Source: a phage
Sequence record: PZ386951.1
Length of the DNA stretch: 64,000 bases
Direction: 5' to 3' (one strand)
Part shown: piece by piece, positions 1,189-40,708 of the stretch
Layout of the letters: each line of letters opens with the position of its first letter
Numbering within the stretch: position 1 is the first letter of the stretch
Position numbers and translations under genes: made by a program
Notes under the pieces: generated by a model
The model's database searches: none
Told to the model about the DNA's origin: nothing
What the model saw: only the letters and a program-made list of their open reading frames with translations

Positions 1189-2871
1189 TTAAACCATTAC
1201 AGTAAATCGACCGACTTTCTTCATTTGAAGATGCTGACCATATTCTTGCGGGTCATGGTCTTTATGCGAAATTATAAAAACATTAGTGTTTTTCATTGAA
1301 TTTATAATATTAGCTACACCTTTAATACCTTCGGCATCAAATGACCCATCAAACACTTCATCAAGAATTAATGTACTAATACTAACACCAGATACGATAG
1401 AAGCAATATCACGCCAAGTAAATAAAAGAGCAATATCGATTCGTGCCTTTTCACCTTCACTAAATGAAGCATAACTAAAATCTTCACGACCACGGGATTT
1501 AATTGTCTCATTAAATTCTTCATCTAATGTAAACACATAATCCGCTTCCATTATTTTAAGATAATGGTTAATCTGCTTATTAAATAATGGAATGTACTTT
1601 TTAATAATAGCACCTTTAATACCAGAATCTTTGAGCATATCAGTCAAAATTCCTCGGTGATATTTTTCCATTACTAAATTAGTTTTTGTCTTAACAATTT
1701 TATCAAGTTCTTCTTGAAGCAGTGCTATTTCGTCAGCATGGTCAATAAACTCAGAAGATGCTTTTTCTATAGCTGCTTTAACTTTTTTGGCTTTATCTAC
1801 CGTCGTGATTAGAGATTGCTTTTTATTGCGAATATCATTTGCCAACGACTGCTGGGTTTTAATATTATCTCGGTATTCATCAACAAGAACTTTTAAATTA
1901 TCACGATGTGTTGAAAGCTGTTCAAACGAATGCGTACATTCAGAAACTTTATCTTTAATTTTAGAAACAACTTTATCACCGGAACTCAATTGTGACAAAC
2001 AGGTTGGACATAATCCACCTTCGTGATACATATTAATGACTTTATTATATGAGTCAATTTTTGATTTAATTAAAAATGCTTCTTGACCGATTTTATTAAA
2101 TGCATCAGTCGGGTCTTCATCCAAAACAATATTAACTAATCTTTCATTAGCTTCTTCTATTTCCGATTTTAGCGTTCTAGCTTCTTTTGCCAAATCATCA
2201 TACATATTTTGTAGACGAGTAAGGTTGTCACCCGTTAATTTTTTCTGGCGTTCAACGTTATCATTATATATTTTAATTTGTTGGATAATACTATCTTTTT
2301 TAACATCAAGCACTTGGTTTTGTGAATTTAATTCACGTATTAGTGCTTTATTAAGCTTATCCATTTCAGCTAATGTTCCTACCTCAAGCAGGTCTTCCAC
2401 AAGCTTTCTTCGCGCAGGGGTCGACAAACCCATGAAAGGGGTATACCCTGCTGTACCAAGGACAACAATCTGCTTGAAACTGGCATATGACATTCCGATA
2501 AGCTGTTCAAATTCTGCTTGGAAATCTTTACTGCTGGCAGATTCATTAAGACGTGTACCGTTAACGGTGATTTCGAAAACGTTTGGTTTTTGTCCTCTTT
2601 TGATATAGTACTTTTTCTCATCATATTCCATCCACAGTTCAACTAAAAGTTCTTTCTTATTTGTGCTGTTTATTAATTGACCTTTCTTTACATCACGGAA
2701 TGGCTTGCCAAAAAGCCCAAATGTGATGGCTTCTAACATAGTAGACTTACCACCGCCATTTCGTCCAGTAATAAGAGTTTTTTGAACCTTATCTAATTGA
2801 ATGTCAATCCCATTTTGACCAACTGACATTATATTTTTATATTTTACTCTATTAAGTTTAAAATTCTTCAC
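1189..2871 (-). CDS. 46: recombination endonuclease subunit gp46 (Rad50/SbcC-like ATPase)
   Basis: 560 aa; Walker A GRNGGGKST near N-terminus, long central coiled coil, C-terminal ATPase half; length equals T4 gp46. Confidence 0.9.
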   Translation of the reverse strand: MKNFKLNRVKYKNIMSVGQNGIDIQLDKVQKTLITGRNGGGKSTMLEAITFGLFGKPFRDVKKGQLINSTNKKELLVELWMEYDEKKYYIKRGQKPNVFEITVNGTRLNESASSKDFQAEFEQLIGMSYASFKQIVVLGTAGYTPFMGLSTPARRKLVEDLLEVGTLAEMDKLNKALIRELNSQNQVLDVKKDSIIQQIKIYNDNVERQKKLTGDNLTRLQNMYDDLAKEARTLKSEIEEANERLVNIVLDEDPTDAFNKIGQEAFLIKSKIDSYNKVINMYHEGGLCPTCLSQLSSGDKVVSKIKDKVSECTHSFEQLSTHRDNLKVLVDEYRDNIKTQQSLANDIRNKKQSLITTVDKAKKVKAAIEKASSEFIDHADEIALLQEELDKIVKTKTNLVMEKYHRGILTDMLKDSGIKGAIIKKYIPLFNKQINHYLKIMEADYVFTLDEEFNETIKSRGREDFSYASFSEGEKARIDIALLFTWRDIASIVSGVSISTLILDEVFDGSFDAEGIKGVANIINSMKNTNVFIISHKDHDPQEYGQHLQMKKVGRFTVMV

Positions 2872-3131
2872 AAAAGATTCCTTTTAATGTATCTTTTAGA
2901 CCATTCTATCATATCATCATAATCTAAAAAGTATTCATCAAATTCAGCCATGCAAACAACGCCTTGTGCTGTTTTTGATGTGATATAAATTATTCCAACA
3001 TATCTAGAATCTTCTTCGGTATAATCAATGTTTGCTATGAATTCATCATTAATGTCAAATGTCGAAAACTTCACAGTATGCATCCTTAATACAAGATACA
3101 GCCATATCTCGTAATGATTTAGGTGTGTCAT
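2868..3131 (-). CDS. hypothetical protein (87 aa)
   Basis: ORF between genes 47 and 46; stop overlaps gene 46 start. Confidence 0.5.
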   Translation of the reverse strand: MTHLNHYEIWLYLVLRMHTVKFSTFDINDEFIANIDYTEEDSRYVGIIYITSKTAQGVVCMAEFDEYFLDYDDMIEWSKRYIKRNLL

Positions 3132-30425: not shown

Positions 30426-30899
30426 TTATTTGAACGATTTAACGTACTGAATAGAACCTTTACTATTCACGAAAGCGATTTTACCATTTTTATTATACAT
30501 GGTAGCAGTACGCTGATAACCATAAGTTTGCTTACCAGATTGATAACCAACTAATGCAAAATTATCTTCACCCATTTTATTCTGTTTAGCACGAATGCGT
30601 TCATGACCATGTGCCATAAGAACCTTAGCATCACCAGTTGCAATGGATCGACGAGTTTTTTCATCTTCAACTGTATTAACAAAATCGTCAAATGAATCAA
30701 ATTTAGCGTGAGATTTATTATACAGTTTTCCATCTACTGCATAATTATATCCCTGTACATCCATCTCAACTTCTGTACCATCATCCAGTACAGCAGTGAT
30801 TTTTTGACCTTTTTTAAATTTCAAAAGATCAGTAAAAGATTCAGCAATAATTTGAGATTTAATAGCTGCTTCAGTGATAAATTCTTGATATGTTTTCAT
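30426..30899 (-). CDS. internal-protein-like gene with capsid-targeting signal (157 aa), not one of ipI/ipII/ipIII
   Basis: N-terminus MKTYQEFITEA is the CTS/gp21-protease cleavage leader shared with ipII and ipIII; same conserved 5' UTR. Confidence 0.6.
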   Translation of the reverse strand: MKTYQEFITEAAIKSQIIAESFTDLLKFKKGQKITAVLDDGTEVEMDVQGYNYAVDGKLYNKSHAKFDSFDDFVNTVEDEKTRRSIATGDAKVLMAHGHERIRAKQNKMGEDNFALVGYQSGKQTYGYQRTATMYNKNGKIAFVNSKGSIQYVKSFK

Positions 30900-30924
30900 A
30901 TGTTTCCTTTAAATGTAAATATTT
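30876..30924 (-). repeat. ~48 bp direct repeat (CTS codons plus 5' UTR), copy 1 of 3
   Basis: gataaattcttgatatgttttcatatgtttcctttaaatgtaaata also at 31662..31707 and 32282..32330. Confidence 0.8.
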
Positions 30925-31325
30925 TTGCCGTAATACTTATACCAGTGCGGCTTCATTAAAATTTTTTCATCGAGTCGTTGTTGACTCAACCTAATAGCTG
31001 ATTTGCATGGATTATAATCATTTTTCCATTCTACTGGAATATCACTGATGTCAGGAACTTCAGTATCTTTTATACTAAACCTGCGTTTTAAGCATTCCGT
31101 TATAATGTCTGATTGACGCTTTCGCAAAAATTCTAACTTATCGTAAAAGAACGTAACATGACCAGAACCTAAAATAAACTCGGAAGATATTTTAAAATCT
31201 TTAACCCGTTTACCATTTGCCACGTGTTTACGAATTATACCAAAAACACGTGGCAATTCACGGTATTCCGCGATTAAATGTTGATCAGCAAGTTCAGATA
31301 CTAAAGTCAAATTAATACGAGTCAT
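30909..31325 (-). CDS. denV: endonuclease V (pyrimidine-dimer DNA glycosylase)
   Basis: 138 aa beginning [17 protein letters not shown], matching recalled T4 endoV. Confidence 0.9.
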
Positions 31326-31350
31326 TTTACCCCTCCAAGTAATTATGAAT

Positions 31351-31380
31351 ATACTATCACAATTCTAGGAGAAAGTAAAC
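31351..31380 (-). promoter_or_regulatory. early promoter in a stem-loop cassette upstream of denV
   Basis: ~40 bp near-identical to 32355..32394; 8-bp inverted repeat around the -10 (TGaTAGTAT), GTTTAC -35. Confidence 0.5.
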
Positions 31381-31382
31381 TG

Positions 31383-31685
31383 TTATTTACCTTTAATTAC
31401 TTTAGCTGCTTCGATAGCCGCTTGCTGAAGGTCATCCATAGACATACCGAATTTAGAAGCAAAGTTATCAATTTTCTTTTCGACAGCATTCAAAGGCTTG
31501 GCCTGTTTACCTTCATTAGCGCCAGGAAGAGCGAGAATACGCTCTTTGTCAATATAAAGGCTTACAAGTTTCTTACGGTCTTTATCGGACAAATCATGAA
31601 ATGAATGGGCCTTTTTATTTATAGCGGCTTCTAATTTACCTGCACTCACTCGCGCTTCAGTAATAAATTCTTGATATGTTTTCAT
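31383..31685 (-). CDS. ipII: internal protein II
   Basis: 100 aa, N-terminal CTS MKTYQEFITEA; position denV-ipII-ipIII-e as in T4. Confidence 0.8.
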   Translation of the reverse strand: MKTYQEFITEARVSAGKLEAAINKKAHSFHDLSDKDRKKLVSLYIDKERILALPGANEGKQAKPLNAVEKKIDNFASKFGMSMDDLQQAAIEAAKVIKGK

Positions 31686-31707
31686 ATGTTTCCTTTAAAT
31701 GTAAATA
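31662..31707 (-). repeat. direct repeat (CTS plus 5' UTR), copy 2 of 3
   Basis: See 30876..30924. Confidence 0.8.
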
Positions 31708-31726
31708 GGTCTGAGTATTAGCTTTA

Positions 31727-32305
31727 TTAGGAATTACGGGCTGCATTAGCAACGGCATACGCGTACTGAACATTAGCGTCTTTAAACGTACCTTTAGAGG
31801 TATCTATTTCTGCCTTAAAGCCGCCTTTAGTCATAACATCGGCAAATTCTTTACGGAAAGCCATTGCATCAAGACCTTTCCATGATGATTTATGCTTGGC
31901 GAATTCAAGACCAGCGTAGTTGACAGCCTTAGCTAATTTATTATCAATAACCCATTTACCAGCTTTAGGCACAAACTTCGGGCCTTTCTGTTTAGAGAAC
32001 AGTTTTAAATTCCAGCGGCGAAGGTCACTGTCGGCTTTAACAAAAGCTGCGTCTAAGTTACTAGCAACAACATCTTCAATATGAGCAAATTTAAGTCCGT
32101 CAACTTCAATATTTAGATCGGTACGCCAGCGAAGTCCTTCCCAAGCGAAGGCTTTAAAGTCGGAAGCCTTTGTAGCTAAGTACCGTTCAATAGGAGCTGT
32201 TTTAGGGTCAAAGCCGTTTCCTGATCGGTAGGTCCACTCATCTTTGTTAATGCCTTTGGCCTTTACTACAGAAACTTCGGCAATAAATTCTTGATATGTT
32301 TTCAT
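31727..32305 (-). CDS. ipIII: internal protein III
   Basis: 192 aa, CTS MKTYQEFIAEV; basic Lys/Ala-rich; position before e. Confidence 0.8.
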   Translation of the reverse strand: MKTYQEFIAEVSVVKAKGINKDEWTYRSGNGFDPKTAPIERYLATKASDFKAFAWEGLRWRTDLNIEVDGLKFAHIEDVVASNLDAAFVKADSDLRRWNLKLFSKQKGPKFVPKAGKWVIDNKLAKAVNYAGLEFAKHKSSWKGLDAMAFRKEFADVMTKGGFKAEIDTSKGTFKDANVQYAYAVANAARNS

Positions 32306-32330
32306 ATGTTTCCTTTAAATGTAAATATTT
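32282..32330 (-). repeat. direct repeat (CTS plus 5' UTR), copy 3 of 3
   Basis: See 30876..30924. Confidence 0.8.
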
Positions 32331-32364
32331 TAATTAGTAATTGTCTATTCAAGTAATTGTGAAT

Positions 32365-32394
32365 ATACTATCACAATTCCAAGAGAAAGTAAAC
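32365..32394 (-). promoter_or_regulatory. early promoter in a stem-loop cassette upstream of ipIII
   Basis: Near-identical copy of the 31341..31380 cassette. Confidence 0.5.
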
Positions 32395-32398
32395 AACT

Positions 32399-33367
<969 letters not shown>

Positions 33368-35207: not shown

Positions 35208-35801
35208 TTATTTCAGAGAATTAATATATTCCTGAACATCGGCAGAGGTAGTTTCAACCCCAGAAATATTACCATTAAAGGTTTCAACTCGAGCAAGTGT
35301 GTCTTCAATATCAACCTTAGTCAGTGCTGCAATTTCAACTACATCATCAGCAGTACTAATTCCAAGGGCATTTGCTGCACGAGTTTCACGGATATATTCC
35401 AATTTAACTGCAAGTTCTTGGCGAGCATCATCTAACTCAACTACTTTCTTGGCGATTTCAATTCGCATTTCAGCATAACCATCAGCTTTAGTAGTCAGCT
35501 GTTCAGCTGTTCGACGATATAGCAAACCGAGTTTAGCATGCATTGTTACATCTTGACCTTCGGAAAGAAGCTTGCGAATTTCACGCTCTTTTGATTCGGC
35601 CTGTCGATTCTTTTCGGCAATAAGTTCACGAATACGTTTTTCTTCATTAATAGATTTAACAGAAGCAGTTTTTAGATCTTTAATTTTATCAAGTAGCTTT
35701 GCTGCTGCAGCAGTATACTGTTCTTCAACAGATAGATTTTTAGCCATAGCAGAACCAAGTTTAGTGCGAATAAACTCAACAATTTTCTTCAGTGTGTTCA
35801 T
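35208..35801 (-). CDS. PspA/IM30-like coiled-coil protein (tentative)
   Basis: 197 aa, almost entirely helical; segment DTLARVETF resembles the PspA DEAMARFESF region. Low-complexity similarity only. Confidence 0.4.
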
Positions 35802-35865
35802 AGTATTTCCTTAGGTTGATTAAGATTTAAAATCTGTAAAAATTATTATATTCTATCATCAAATT

Positions 35866-35897
35866 ATAGGCTCATAATATCTCAATCATGAGCCTAT
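35866..35897 (-). terminator. 10-bp stem-loop ataggctcat ... atgagcctat downstream of ORF 35904..36179
   Basis: Strong hairpin; downstream tail is A/T-rich but not a clean U run. Confidence 0.35.
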
Positions 35898-35903
35898 GCA
35901 AAC

Positions 35904-36179
35904 TTATTTCATATTATTGAAATATTCTTCTGCGATTTCGTCGTTATCATGGTAAACTTTAGAAGACAGTTTAACATAACCTTCAGCAGTGAACATGTTA
36001 ATCACAACCTTTACAGTATACCACTGACCATCTTCATTACCCATTACTGCGTAAGTTTCAAACATTGGATGATCAGGACCGATAACTTTAATATCATTCA
36101 CTGTACGACCGAAATCTTCTGAAACGCATTTCATAAAGAAGTTGAACAGTTCGCCGTAATTATCCATTTCATTCTCCAA
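35904..36179 (-). CDS. hypothetical acidic protein (91 aa)
   Basis: First gene downstream of the early promoter at 36211..36240. Confidence 0.5.
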   Translation of the reverse strand: MENEMDNYGELFNFFMKCVSEDFGRTVNDIKVIGPDHPMFETYAVMGNEDGQWYTVKVVINMFTAEGYVKLSSKVYHDNDEIAEEYFNNMK

Positions 36180-36210
36180 GTTGTTTTCTGTATCAGTAGT
36201 TGATAGTTGT

Positions 36211-36240
36211 ATAGTACCATGGAAGAACAGAGATGTAAAC
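36211..36240 (-). promoter_or_regulatory. T4-type early promoter cassette
   Basis: Minus strand GTTTACatctctgttcttccaTGGTACTAT; ~65 bp near-identical to the 19375 and 20820 copies. Confidence 0.55.
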
Positions 36241-36374
36241 CGTTTTGTGAAAAAATTTTAAAAATTTTTAGGGAATTCTAGGGTCAGGAGGGGCAATTAA
36301 AAGGTAGGATAATATATTATAAAGGGTATAAACTAAATGATGCCTAGAGAGGCCAAGAAAGGCCTAGATACAAA

Positions 36375-36401
36375 AAATCCCTATCATTTAGATAGGGATT
36401 T
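36375..36401 (-). terminator. intrinsic terminator (11-bp stem aaatccctatc/gatagggattt, then T run on minus strand)
   Basis: Directly after the stop of CDS 36406..36969. Confidence 0.6.
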
Positions 36402-36405
36402 AAAA

Positions 36406-36969
36406 TTATTTACCCAGTTTAGTTATTATAGCTTCGGCAGCAGCTTTTAGCTTAGATGCAGTGTTAATACGATTTTTAATTTCAGTATACGCATCGCCAA
36501 GAACATCAAGGCTATCTGAATAAACACTTACACTATTGCGTTCACTATTTGAAATAGAACCTTTAGTTTTACGATCAAAATCGGTGTACACGTCTTGAAG
36601 ATCGCGGGCTGCCTTCTTTGCATCATCCAATGCATCAAGAGCTTTATTTAAAGCATTAACATATTTTTTAGTGTCAAACATATTCTTAGAAATTTTGACG
36701 GGTGCGCGTTCAGGAGTAGCTAAGGCAGATTTAGGAACCTGAGCGCCTGATGCCAGTTTCTTAGAAATTTTGAAAAATGCTTTATTGAATTTATTTTCTT
36801 GACTCATCGTAAAAGAACTATTATCGATGTTATACATTTCAATAGCTTTAGCTTTCCACTTAAGAAAATCGCCCCGGTCTTTTGGGTCCAAGTGGAAGAA
36901 TACTTTAGTAAGATCTGCTTCAGATGGTAATTTTGCTGCTTCGGTTAAAAATTCGGCATAGGTTTTCAT
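36406..36969 (-). CDS. internal-protein-like gene with capsid-targeting signal (187 aa)
   Basis: N-terminus MKTYAEFLTEAAK (CTS-like, predicted gp21 cleavage after LTE); RBS AAGGA. Confidence 0.55.
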   Translation of the reverse strand: MKTYAEFLTEAAKLPSEADLTKVFFHLDPKDRGDFLKWKAKAIEMYNIDNSSFTMSQENKFNKAFFKISKKLASGAQVPKSALATPERAPVKISKNMFDTKKYVNALNKALDALDDAKKAARDLQDVYTDFDRKTKGSISNSERNSVSVYSDSLDVLGDAYTEIKNRINTASKLKAAAEAIITKLGK

Positions 36970-37062
36970 TTAAAATCCTTGAAATAATTTATCGGTTGGT
37001 TATTAATTATTTATTACTTTGTTATTATCCGTAACAGCATTCTCTATGCGATTCAAACTAAA

Positions 37063-37088
37063 AAGCCCCAACCTTTCGGTCGGGGCTA
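37063..37088 (-). terminator. intrinsic terminator closing the tRNA/stable-RNA transcription unit
   Basis: Minus strand agccccgacc-GAAA-ggttggggct followed by TTTTT. Confidence 0.6.
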
Positions 37089-37089
37089 A

Positions 37090-37400
37090 GCCTTGCGGCA
37101 ACCTTGTCGGGGTTCCACCTGCTAAGGCAAGTGTTTGTACGAAACGCCGGGATTCGAACCCGGTTATTAAGTAGTTGACGCTACTCAATATTTTTAAAAG
37201 GCCATATCTCGACCATATCCGAACGTTCCGTCAAAAACGCTACTCGGCTTACGGCAAAGATATTTCCTCGAATCGATAATTCGGTGCGCCGTTTCTGCTG
37301 TGATGTAAGGGGGCATTAACCGATCGTAAAGATTTGTTAATGCCAGTCCTTACCCAGGGAACATCAGTCCGACGACTTACCGGTAGCGACCCGGTTTCTT
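37090..37400 (-). ncRNA. structured non-coding region with an orphan tRNA-like T-arm (possibly equivalent to T4 stable RNA species C/D)
   Basis: No ORF; canonical T-arm CCGGGTTCGAATCCCGG (plus 37149..37165) but no complete cloverleaf could be folded; 9-bp hairpin attgagtag/ctacttaat nearby. Confidence 0.3.
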
Positions 37401-37403
37401 GTT

Positions 37404-37479
37404 TGGTCGAGGCAGTAGGGATCGAACCTACGACCTAGGACTTAGAAGGTCCTTGCTCTTCCTTCTGAGCTATGCCTCG
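37404..37479 (-). tRNA. tRNA-Arg: tRNA-Arg (anticodon UCU), CCA encoded
   Basis: Manual cloverleaf: acceptor CGAGGCA/TGCCTCG, D-stem GCTC/GAGC, anticodon loop CUUCUAA, T-arm GTAGG-TTCGATC-CCTAC. Confidence 0.85.
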
Positions 37480-37483
37480 GATT

Positions 37484-37558
37484 TGGCGGACGTGATAGGA
37501 TTCGAACCTATAACCAATCGCTTAACAGGCGATCGCTCTGCCATTGAGCTACACATCC
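37484..37558 (-). tRNA. tRNA-Asn: tRNA-Asn (anticodon GUU), CCA encoded
   Basis: Manual cloverleaf: acceptor GGATGTG/CACGTCC, anticodon stem ATCGC/GCGAT, loop CUGUUAA, T-loop TTCGAAT. Confidence 0.8.
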
Positions 37559-37562
37559 AAAT

Positions 37563-37649
37563 TGGTGGGGAGTGATGGAGTCGAACCACCCGAGTCGCAA
37601 TGACAATGGATTTACAGTCCACACCGCTACCTCTACGGGATAACTCCCC
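37563..37649 (-). tRNA. tRNA-Tyr: tRNA-Tyr (anticodon GUA), type II long variable arm, CCA encoded
   Basis: Acceptor GGGGAGT/ACTCCCC; anticodon arm GTGGA-CUGUAAA-TCCAT; variable arm resembles E. coli tRNA-Tyr. Confidence 0.8.
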
Positions 37650-37661
37650 TAATTCATAATT

Positions 37662-37736
37662 TGGTGGCCCTGGGTGGAATTGAACCACCATCTGGCGATT
37701 ATGAGTCGCTTGCTTGAACCTTCCAGCTACAGGGCC
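37662..37736 (-). tRNA. tRNA-Ile: tRNA with CAU anticodon (Ile2/lysidine-type or Met)
   Basis: Acceptor GGCCCTG/CAGGGCC; anticodon arm GCGACUCAUAAUCGC as in E. coli tRNA-Ile2. Confidence 0.75.
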
Positions 37737-37745
37737 AAATTTTTC

Positions 37746-38231
37746 TTATTTTATGTAATATTTATTTAAAAACTTTCTAGCTTGAGTGTGGCTAACATTT
37801 ATAGCATTTGCATAATTTTTAATAAAACCTCGTTCATCCATATTAAAATTTTCTAATATTTTTAATCGTCTAGTTATCTCATCTTGACTTAAAGTACTTG
37901 CATTATTTTTAGAAATTTTTTCTAAGGACTGAACTGAGTGTTTTCGACCACTAAAATTAAAATTTTTAGATTTTGGAGGAAATCTATCATTTAGTCTGGC
38001 ATCTTTTGTATTTTGATTATTGGTTGCGCAATATATGTTATTTAATGAATACGGTCCTTTATCACCAAAACGACACATGCAGTATTCATGACCCTTTCTT
38101 CCACGCTTATCATAATTTCCCGTTGATTTCCACCAATGCAACCACTCATCAAAAGTTAAATTCCATTCAATGTTTCTACGTATAGCAGAATTCCGCTGAG
38201 AAATATATTTTGCATAATCTTCTTTCATCAC
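37746..38231 (-). CDS. HNH-family endonuclease-like protein (161 aa) between the two tRNA sub-clusters
   Basis: Central CRFGDKGPYSLNNIYCATNNQN resembles the HNH_3 core (first His not obvious); C-terminal helix-turn-helix-like tail. Confidence 0.45.
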   Translation of the reverse strand: MMKEDYAKYISQRNSAIRRNIEWNLTFDEWLHWWKSTGNYDKRGRKGHEYCMCRFGDKGPYSLNNIYCATNNQNTKDARLNDRFPPKSKNFNFSGRKHSVQSLEKISKNNASTLSQDEITRRLKILENFNMDERGFIKNYANAINVSHTQARKFLNKYYIK

Positions 38232-38275
38232 AAATTTCTCTACTTATTACATACACTAAGCTAAATCAGCAAAAC

Positions 38276-38365
38276 TGGCGGAGGCGATAGGATTTGAACC
38301 TATGAGTCGCCGGAGCGACTGCCGGTTTTCAAGACCGGTGCATTAAACCACTCTGCCACGCCTCC
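38276..38365 (-). tRNA. tRNA-Ser: tRNA-Ser (anticodon UGA), type II
   Basis: Acceptor GGAGGCG/CGCCTCC; anticodon arm CCGGU-CUUGAAA-ACCGG; long variable arm; T-loop TTCAAAT. Confidence 0.85.
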
Positions 38366-39705: not shown

Positions 39706-39939
39706 TCATTTTTTACGAAAAATTGATTTATTTTCTGCTGCCCATTTTTCAATAACTGCAGCCGGACCAGTAACAACAATTTTATCACCGTAATCTTCTG
39801 CGGCGAGTTGACCGAAATTATCTAATGCATCACGAAGAACTCCATGAGGCATTTCACCCATTTTATCTTTCTTGCCAGTGTAAATAAACTCAACTTTTAC
39901 ATCAGAAGATTCAGCGATAAATTCTTTAAACGTTTTCAT
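39706..39939 (-). CDS. internal protein at the ipI locus (77 aa precursor with CTS)
   Basis: N-terminus MKTFKEFIAES (CTS); position between 57B and the tRNA region as for T4 ipI; body does not obviously match recalled IPI. Confidence 0.6.
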   Translation of the reverse strand: MKTFKEFIAESSDVKVEFIYTGKKDKMGEMPHGVLRDALDNFGQLAAEDYGDKIVVTGPAAVIEKWAAENKSIFRKK

Positions 39940-39969
39940 TTTATTTTCCTAATTAATTTTGATGAGATA

Positions 39970-39999
39970 ATAGTATCACTACCTCATCAGCATGTAAAC
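39970..39999 (-). promoter_or_regulatory. early promoter in a stem-loop cassette (upstream flank of the ipI-locus gene)
   Basis: Inverted repeat gatgag/ctcatc around TGaTACTAT; GTTTAC -35; second copy of taatagtatcactacc. Confidence 0.5.
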
Positions 40000-40011
40000 A
40001 ACTTTGTGAAA

Positions 40012-40708
<697 letters not shown>

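Follow-up and report, generated by a model that had tools for sequence, protein, structure and literature searches.

A putative capsid-targeted internal protein gene between the tRNA cluster and e.8 of a T4-like phage, from a widespread family without functional annotation

The internal proteins IPII and IPIII of phage T4 carry an N-terminal capsid-targeting sequence (CTS), are processed by the protease gp21, are basic, and occur at about 300 copies per head. Work from the Black laboratory established that the first 10 residues of IPIII are enough for head incorporation, and a 10-residue CTS suffices for the packaging of unrelated proteins in T4 (PMC9026906). Suppressor analysis of the IPIII CTS showed targeting to depend chiefly on residues 4 and 7 and processing on residues 8 and 10; gp21 cleaves after the motif L/I-x-E, with L or I tolerated at P3 (PMC9026906). 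Three proteins of the core, gp22, gp67, and gp68, are cleaved and for the most part expelled (PMC9026906). T4 Ip1, Ip2, and Ip3 each inhibit a different GmrSD type IV restriction enzyme (PMC12373910).

The window analyzed here is a stretch of 64,000 nucleotides of phage DNA (PZ386951.1). Its region 35800-38300 has 95 to 96% DNA identity with many sequenced T4-like phages of E. coli, Shigella, and Yersinia, which places the window as a segment of a Tequatrovirus (T4-like) genome. This genus is known to encode gp21; the window itself appears to end before what we take, from the T4 gene order, to be genes 20 to 23. The original prediction was that a 187-amino-acid (aa) open reading frame (ORF) with a CTS-like start, situated beside the tRNA cluster, outside the ipII/ipIII array and away from the ipI locus, encodes another packaged and injected protein. 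Such an ORF is indeed present on the minus strand (Table 1), while the array occupies 30426..32305 and the ipI-locus gene, assigned by PHROG as "internal virion protein," lies at 39706..39939. A longer reading frame is impossible because a stop codon overlaps the spacer upstream of the ORF. The gene had also been described as bracketed by two terminators; a terminator scan recovered both, and both fold well on the strand of the gene. The upstream hairpin (37087..37064) has a 10-bp stem with 7 GC pairs (-24.9 kcal/mol; z score, -4.7) followed by TTTTT and is, by alignment, the counterpart of the T4 terminator after rnaC, and the downstream hairpin (36401..36375) has an 11-bp stem (-15.2 kcal/mol; z score, -3.2) followed by TTTTTT.

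Table 1. Features of the 187-aa gene, its predicted product, and the adjoining region, in window coordinates
Feature	Position	Strand	Basis or remark
Cassette without T4 counterpart, approximate extent	36398..37056	minus	BLAST alignment ends
Intrinsic terminator of the 187-aa gene (two-way hairpin), downstream cassette boundary	36375..36401	minus	scan and fold
Coding sequence, 187 codons plus stop, ATG start	36406..36969	minus	begins MKTYAEFLTEAAK
C-terminal three-helix hairpin/bundle, residues 101-186	36412..36669	minus	AlphaFold2, confident
Disordered linker, residues 74-100	36670..36750	minus	alignment and AlphaFold2; pLDDT < 50 at residues 77-89
N-terminal helical domain, residues 17-73, three or four helices	36751..36921	minus	alignment and AlphaFold2
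Leader MKTYAEFLTE, codons 1-10, ending in the gp21 motif L-T-E	36940..36969	minus	sequence and IPIII comparison
Shine-Dalgarno sequence AAGGA, 6 nt before ATG	36976..36980	minus	read from sequence
T4 late-promoter-like box AATAAATA, 7/8 of TATAAATA, 46 to 39 nt upstream of ATG	37008..37015	minus	motif
Intrinsic terminator closing the tRNA/rnaD/rnaC unit, upstream cassette boundary	37064..37087	minus	terminator scan and fold
rnaC	~37138..37276	minus	alignment to T4, 91% identity
rnaD	~37283..37401	minus	alignment to T4, 91% identity

Alignment of the window to T4 stops at 36397 and restarts at 37057, the two T4 segments overlapping by 28 nucleotides. The T4-matching flanks consist of e.8 and its promoter region on one side and the rnaC terminator, rnaC, rnaD, and tRNA-Arg on the other. 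No gene is annotated in T4 between e.8 and rnaC, and about 660 bp of the window has no T4 counterpart; relative to T4, the alignment thus shows a cassette inserted after the rnaC terminator and before the promoter region of e.8. The cassette is a self-contained unit comprising the terminator of the tRNA unit, the AATAAATA box, the Shine-Dalgarno sequence, the ORF, and a terminator belonging to the gene. Downstream of the 187-aa gene, a 91-aa ORF (35904..36179) is e.8, which has its own sigma-70/early-type promoter match. In the adjoining tRNA unit, the region of the stable RNAs rnaC and rnaD matched no Rfam family, and the small ORFs listed in that stretch are spurious. The tRNA cluster is itself interrupted, between tRNA-Met and tRNA-Ser, by a 161-aa ORF (37746..38231, minus strand) that takes the place of T4 segB and is shorter than it; its counterpart in phage WL-3 is annotated as a putative site-specific homing endonuclease.

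The 187-aa ORF is a real gene under strong purifying selection. Compared with WL-3 and ime09, it shows 23 to 24 nucleotide differences, 20 to 22 of them synonymous, with pN/pS of 0.02 to 0.04 and pS of 0.17 to 0.19. That the ORF is nonfunctional, a chance ORF or a decaying remnant, is therefore extremely improbable: its uniform labeling as "hypothetical," its omission from the WL-3 annotation, its frameshift in RB69, and its interruption in some phages could be read in that way, but the substitution pattern effectively refutes it, and the distribution over 165 records, the homologs in eight genera, the possession of its own Shine-Dalgarno sequence, promoter box, and terminator, and the confident structural model described below all argue to the contrary.

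The leader carries Y4, F7, L8, and E10, which correspond to all four experimentally important residues of the IPIII CTS, Y4 and F7 being identical to those of IPIII. The triplet L8-T9-E10, followed by A11, is the single [LI]xE in the 187-aa protein and qualifies by sequence as a gp21 site. The leader departs from the T4 CTS MKTYQEFIAE at positions 5, 8, and 9 only. Position 5 is variable among internal proteins (Q, K, or N elsewhere); the I8L change is found also in WKM80649 (MKTYQEFLNE), an internal protein with 66 spectra in purified virions; and the A9T change is found also in the ipII-like gene of the window. The pattern MKT[YF]xEF[IL]xE occurs at the start of five ORFs in the window, namely, three in the ipII/ipIII array, one at the ipI locus, and the 187-aa gene, and its chance frequency is about 3e-8 per ORF start, a rough estimate from rough amino acid frequencies. 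The resemblance is not due to chance, since the other four ORFs of the window with the pattern are ip-type genes and leader-type sequences recur in all of more than 30 distant family members; chance similarity without a cleavage site, one of the outcomes named as fatal to the original prediction, is thus not what the sequence presents.

Conservation within the family (PHROG 2280, described below) is highest at this end of the protein. In comparison with nine distant representatives, identity is 51% in the leader, 20% in the N-terminal domain, and 15% in the C-terminal domain, which makes the leader the best-conserved segment of the aligned family sequences. An [LI]xE motif ending at residue 9 or 10 was present in 31 of the 31 members scanned, and members have Y or F at residue 4 and F or I at residue 7. 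In many members another [LI]xE follows a few residues on, directly before a conserved AGERMTK, an arrangement reminiscent of the redundant propeptide sites of phiKZ-like phages (PMC9026906). The leader of the Marfa homolog, MLKFKDILTE, stands against MKTYKEFI[AT]E in the four canonical internal proteins of Marfa; in most genera the family has its own leader dialect, and targeting efficiency could differ. An argument from covariation of the leader with the canonical internal proteins of the same phage was abandoned when no such covariation was seen in Marfa. Depletion of gp21 sites in the mature body was not significant, a comparison that has no power because chance alone would supply about one site per protein.

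The gene also appears to be expressed late. A late-type box was found 33 to 46 nucleotides before the start codon in 11 of 11 loci, in most of them right after a terminator hairpin. It is a perfect TATAAATA in JS98, JS09, KMB19, KP185, and ValerieMcCarty04, AATAAATA in the window gene and RB69, CATAAATA in Marfa, and GATAAATA in Kosakonia 305, EcS1, and the P0013 contig, the last three forms each agreeing with TATAAATA at 7 of 8 positions. The window, with its 128,000 strand-nucleotides, contains ATAAATA 20 times, which gives an expectation of 0.005 per 30 nucleotides. Judged from the motif alone, the 187-aa gene would be transcribed late, as a prohead component would need to be. Upstream of the ipI-locus gene (39940..40020) and of the ipIII-like gene (32306..32400), both on the minus strand, are T4 early-type promoters (GTTTAC, a gap of about 17 nucleotides, and a TAnnAT-like element) with no TATAAATA nearby; the 187-aa gene, unlike these two, carries a late-type box only.

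The other noncanonical CTS-bearing gene of the window (30426..30899, minus strand; 157 aa, beginning MKTYQEFITEAAIKS) is, by eye, homologous to WKM80649, an "internal virion protein," and its product is, on this similarity, very likely a genuine packaged protein. An identical 23-nucleotide cassette, ATATTTACATTTAAAGGAAACAT, stands directly before the ATG of three array ip genes (30900..30922, 31686..31708, and 32306..32328, minus strand) and precedes neither the 187-aa gene nor the ipI-locus gene; it has the look of a cassette shared for translation initiation or recombination.

Homology searching gave a full-length match of the 187-aa protein to PHROG 2280 (E value, 1.4e-53; protein residues 1-181 against positions 1-178 of the 178-position profile). 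This family includes RB69 ORF149c and ORF148c, JS98 orf135, Shfl2p135, and EcS1 ORF149. It has no functional annotation in the records examined, its function being unassigned in PHROG; no papers were found on RB69ORF149c, Shfl2p135, or JS98 gp135; and nothing in Pfam or NCBIfam reached threshold, the sole sub-threshold match being to cytochrome b562. By tblastn, copies are present in 165 phage records, in 164 at no less than 95% identity and in the Shigella phage CT01 at 86%. Among the 60 records listed, all annotated copies are termed "hypothetical," and the WL-3 annotation misses the gene altogether. An exhaustive HMMER search with the single protein yielded one distant relative, P0013 (31% identity), which as a tblastn query matched 351 phage records, and a profile search added 20 further proteins. 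Homologs were found in eight genera, i.e., Tequatrovirus and the seven further genera examined: Mosigvirus (RB69 and JS09), Dhakavirus (JS98), Karamvirus (KMB19), Marfavirus, Kanagawavirus (Kosakonia 305), Kagamiyamavirus (EcS1), and Jiaodavirus (KP185 and ValerieMcCarty04). Examination of the phiR1-RT region found no sequence homolog. In most loci of the seven further genera, the gene again has the tRNA cluster on one side and the e.8/e.6 genes on the other. The e.x-region comparison suggested with the original prediction thus found T4 to lack the gene at this place and other T4-like genera to carry homologs, and in sequence and gene order the gene is part of a widespread syntenic family, not a one-off. 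On the metagenomic contig of P0013, the next gene downstream (2092..2526) has ART-PolyVal/DUF3990 (ADP-ribosyltransferase-like) Pfam matches, a neighbor that recalls Alt, the packaged ADP-ribosyltransferase of T4.

Individual alleles point to exchange and loss. RB69 ORF149c and ORF148c (2501..3063) are the halves of a frameshifted Tequatrovirus-type allele, near-identical up to the frameshift, and the Mosigvirus JS09 carries a JS98-type allele about 22% identical to the window protein; these relationships indicate that the cassette has been exchanged laterally between genera, with subsequent decay or a sequencing error in RB69. In phages F26 (H81) and OE5505 (H84) the gene matches in two pieces, and in F26 these span 911 bp for a 564-bp gene, which suggests an insertion inside the gene. 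The RB69 frameshift and the interruptions in F26 and OE5505 show no more than that the gene is dispensable. The family was probably overlooked because, of the two best-studied genomes, T4 has no copy and RB69 a broken one.

The predicted mature product (residues 11-187) has 177 aa, a mass of 19.6 kDa, a pI of 9.54, and 14.7% Lys, very close to the ipII-like (pI 9.66; 16.7% Lys) and ipIII-like (pI 9.65; 13.2% Lys) proteins of the window. A single-sequence AlphaFold model was poor (pLDDT, 62) and was replaced by an AlphaFold2 model built on a 27-sequence alignment (pLDDT, 80), which is all-helical. In this model, residues 1-11 (pLDDT, <50) do not pack against the folded body. The helices of the N-terminal domain are placed at residues 17-26, 35-46, and 55-73, with pLDDT of about 72 to 87 in most 10-residue blocks, and this domain is the only part that aligns in all subfamilies, the Jiaodavirus type included. 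The linker that follows is short in the window protein, ranges from 0 to about 50 residues across the family, and consists of Pro/Ala/Lys-rich repeats in other genera; CT01 (1501..1989) has an in-frame deletion of exactly the predicted linker, KKLASGAQVPKSALATPERAPVKIS, with both helical domains intact. The Jiaodavirus subfamily keeps the N-terminal domain and has a different C-terminal domain. The architecture of the family is therefore modular. A profile search of PDB sequences gave nothing below an E value of 0.01, and structure searches returned the family itself, an uncharacterized Yersinia phage protein, and generic helical hairpins, none of them a match informative about activity.

A purified-virion LC-MS/MS table for the Klebsiella phage ValerieMcCarty04, ordered by protein accession and representing one experiment, contains zero spectra for the homolog VMC04_131 (WKM80661), and none of the six WKM80661 tryptic peptides sought is present in it. 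The same table holds 26 rows for WKM80648 and 66 rows for WKM80649, both CTS-bearing internal proteins, and it lists the neighbors of the homolog (WKM80657, 80658, 80662, and 80663), nonstructural proteins among them. WKM80661 belongs to the most divergent subfamily, sharing only the N-terminal domain, with a different C-terminal domain and a leader one residue shorter; the absence is genuine negative evidence that, owing to this divergence, transfers weakly to the window allele. As to other virion studies, fD1, which has a virion proteome, lacks the gene, as does ValerieMcCarty03; the study of UFV13 virions identified four gel bands only; and no virion proteome was found for a phage with a window-type allele. 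What would be expected in the sequence of a packaged, gp21-processed internal protein is all present (CTS residues, gp21 site, leader conservation, late box, and basic, Lys-rich mature part), and the sole virion proteome found for a family member did not detect the homolog.

Zero spectra in ValerieMcCarty04, together with a CTS-like leader and a late promoter, could be accounted for if the protein were an accessory of the prohead core, such as a scaffold, a size-determination helper, or a DNA-entry chaperone, that leaves or stays in few copies after gp21 cleavage and is not an injected effector. Scaffolding proteins typically have long helical hairpins and coiled coils, the cleaved and expelled core proteins gp22, gp67, and gp68 provide a precedent, and high conservation with fixed synteny suits a structural role better than one in an arms race. 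However, T4 and many Tequatroviruses build normal heads without the gene, ValerieMcCarty03 likewise lacking it; the single [LI]xE, located at the leader, would allow no gp22-like fragmentation; and in its basic, Lys-rich mature part the protein is like IPII and IPIII, which are retained. We consider such a role decidedly unlikely.

The negative virion result could also reflect a protein made late that acts in the cytoplasm and is never directed to the head, its leader being an inherited or gene-converted amphipathic helix that serves another role or none, for example, a basic nucleic-acid-binding protein tied to the tRNA/rnaC unit. The difference between the family leader of Marfa and the canonical CTS of that phage, the place beside the tRNA cluster, conserved in eight genera, and the Pro/Ala/Lys-rich linkers of other genera, which look like generic nucleic-acid-binding tails, would fit a cytoplasmic role. 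Against this stands the leader itself, the most conserved segment, in which every member keeps the positions of CTS function (aromatic-4, hydrophobic-7, L/I-8, and E-10). The second [LI]xE sites in the propeptide would serve no evident purpose in the cytoplasm, and because a 10-residue CTS packages unrelated proteins (PMC9026906), a late protein bearing this leader would be hard to exclude from proheads. A cytoplasmic product is, on balance, unlikely.

We favor, as the probable explanation, that the 187-aa protein is a late-made, CTS-targeted, gp21-trimmed internal head protein and a previously unannotated member of the T4 Ip class; its packaging, cleavage, and injection are inferred from sequence features. 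Late in infection, the single-gene cassette would be transcribed from its own TATAAATA-type late promoter, and the 187-aa precursor would enter the prohead scaffolding core through its N-terminal MKTYAEFLTE. The prohead protease gp21 would then cut after Glu10, between L-T-E and A-A-K, to leave the 177-aa, 19.6-kDa, basic, Lys-rich, all-helical protein, which would remain with the DNA inside the head and pass into the next host on ejection. There it may neutralize a host defense, by analogy with Ip1, Ip2, and Ip3 against GmrSD. Taken by itself, this antidefense role is possible but short of probable.

Like T4 IPII and IPIII, the 187-aa protein has a 10-residue leader that agrees with theirs in the critical residues and contains an L/I-x-E motif, has a small, basic, Lys-rich predicted mature part, and is specified by a nonessential, variably present gene in the e/tRNA/57 region of a T4-like genome. 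The similarity is mainly in the leader, hhalign covering residues 1-12 and BLASTP extending weakly to residue 32; an apparent 28% match of the mature part to IPII vanished in profile comparison. In contrast to the ipII/ipIII array, the gene occupies a separate locus with its own late-promoter/terminator cassette and without the shared ATATTTACATTTAAAGGAAACAT upstream cassette. Since its upstream DNA and synonymous positions differ from those of the ipII/ipIII genes, it is not a recently transplanted ip cassette. Its two-domain helical architecture with a variable linker also sets it apart from IPII and IPIII, and its family is conserved and syntenic across genera and is not hypervariable.

In relation to Ip1, Ip2, and Ip3, a CTS, packaging, and injection ahead of gene expression are presumed to be alike for the 187-aa protein, and it too is found in phages that have modified cytosine DNA and face type IV restriction. 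The mature part has no sequence or fold similarity to Ip1, Ip2, or Ip3: IPI* is a compact alpha/beta protein, whereas the 187-aa protein is modeled as all-helical with two domains. Its sequence also shows much stronger conservation than an arms-race inhibitor would be expected to have, and in this the gene contrasts with the hypervariable ipI locus. It is apparently not among the named ip4-10 tested by Silas et al. A broader proposal, which we regard as doubtful, is that PHROG 2280 is a Tevenvirinae-wide family of capsid-delivered effectors, missed because T4 lacks the gene, that would combine a cleavable propeptide of one or two sites with a conserved helical adaptor domain at the N terminus and a C-terminal module open to exchange, and would act on a host target other than the GmrSD enzymes hit by Ip1 to Ip3.

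The Ip class is well known, and PHROG 2280 is not annotated to it in any record or library examined. If the protein is not packaged, a CTS-like leader alone is no predictor of packaging, which matters for leader-based ip annotation. Injected internal proteins act before any phage gene expression, and the three of T4 are inhibitors of type IV restriction; should the proposed assignment be true, an unannotated CTS-bearing family would enlarge the set of candidate first-strike antidefense proteins. It would also provide a second natural CTS dialect, ML[KN]F[KN][ED][FI][LI]xE, useful for T4-based protein delivery, and would help to explain host-range differences between therapeutic T4-like phages with and without the cassette.
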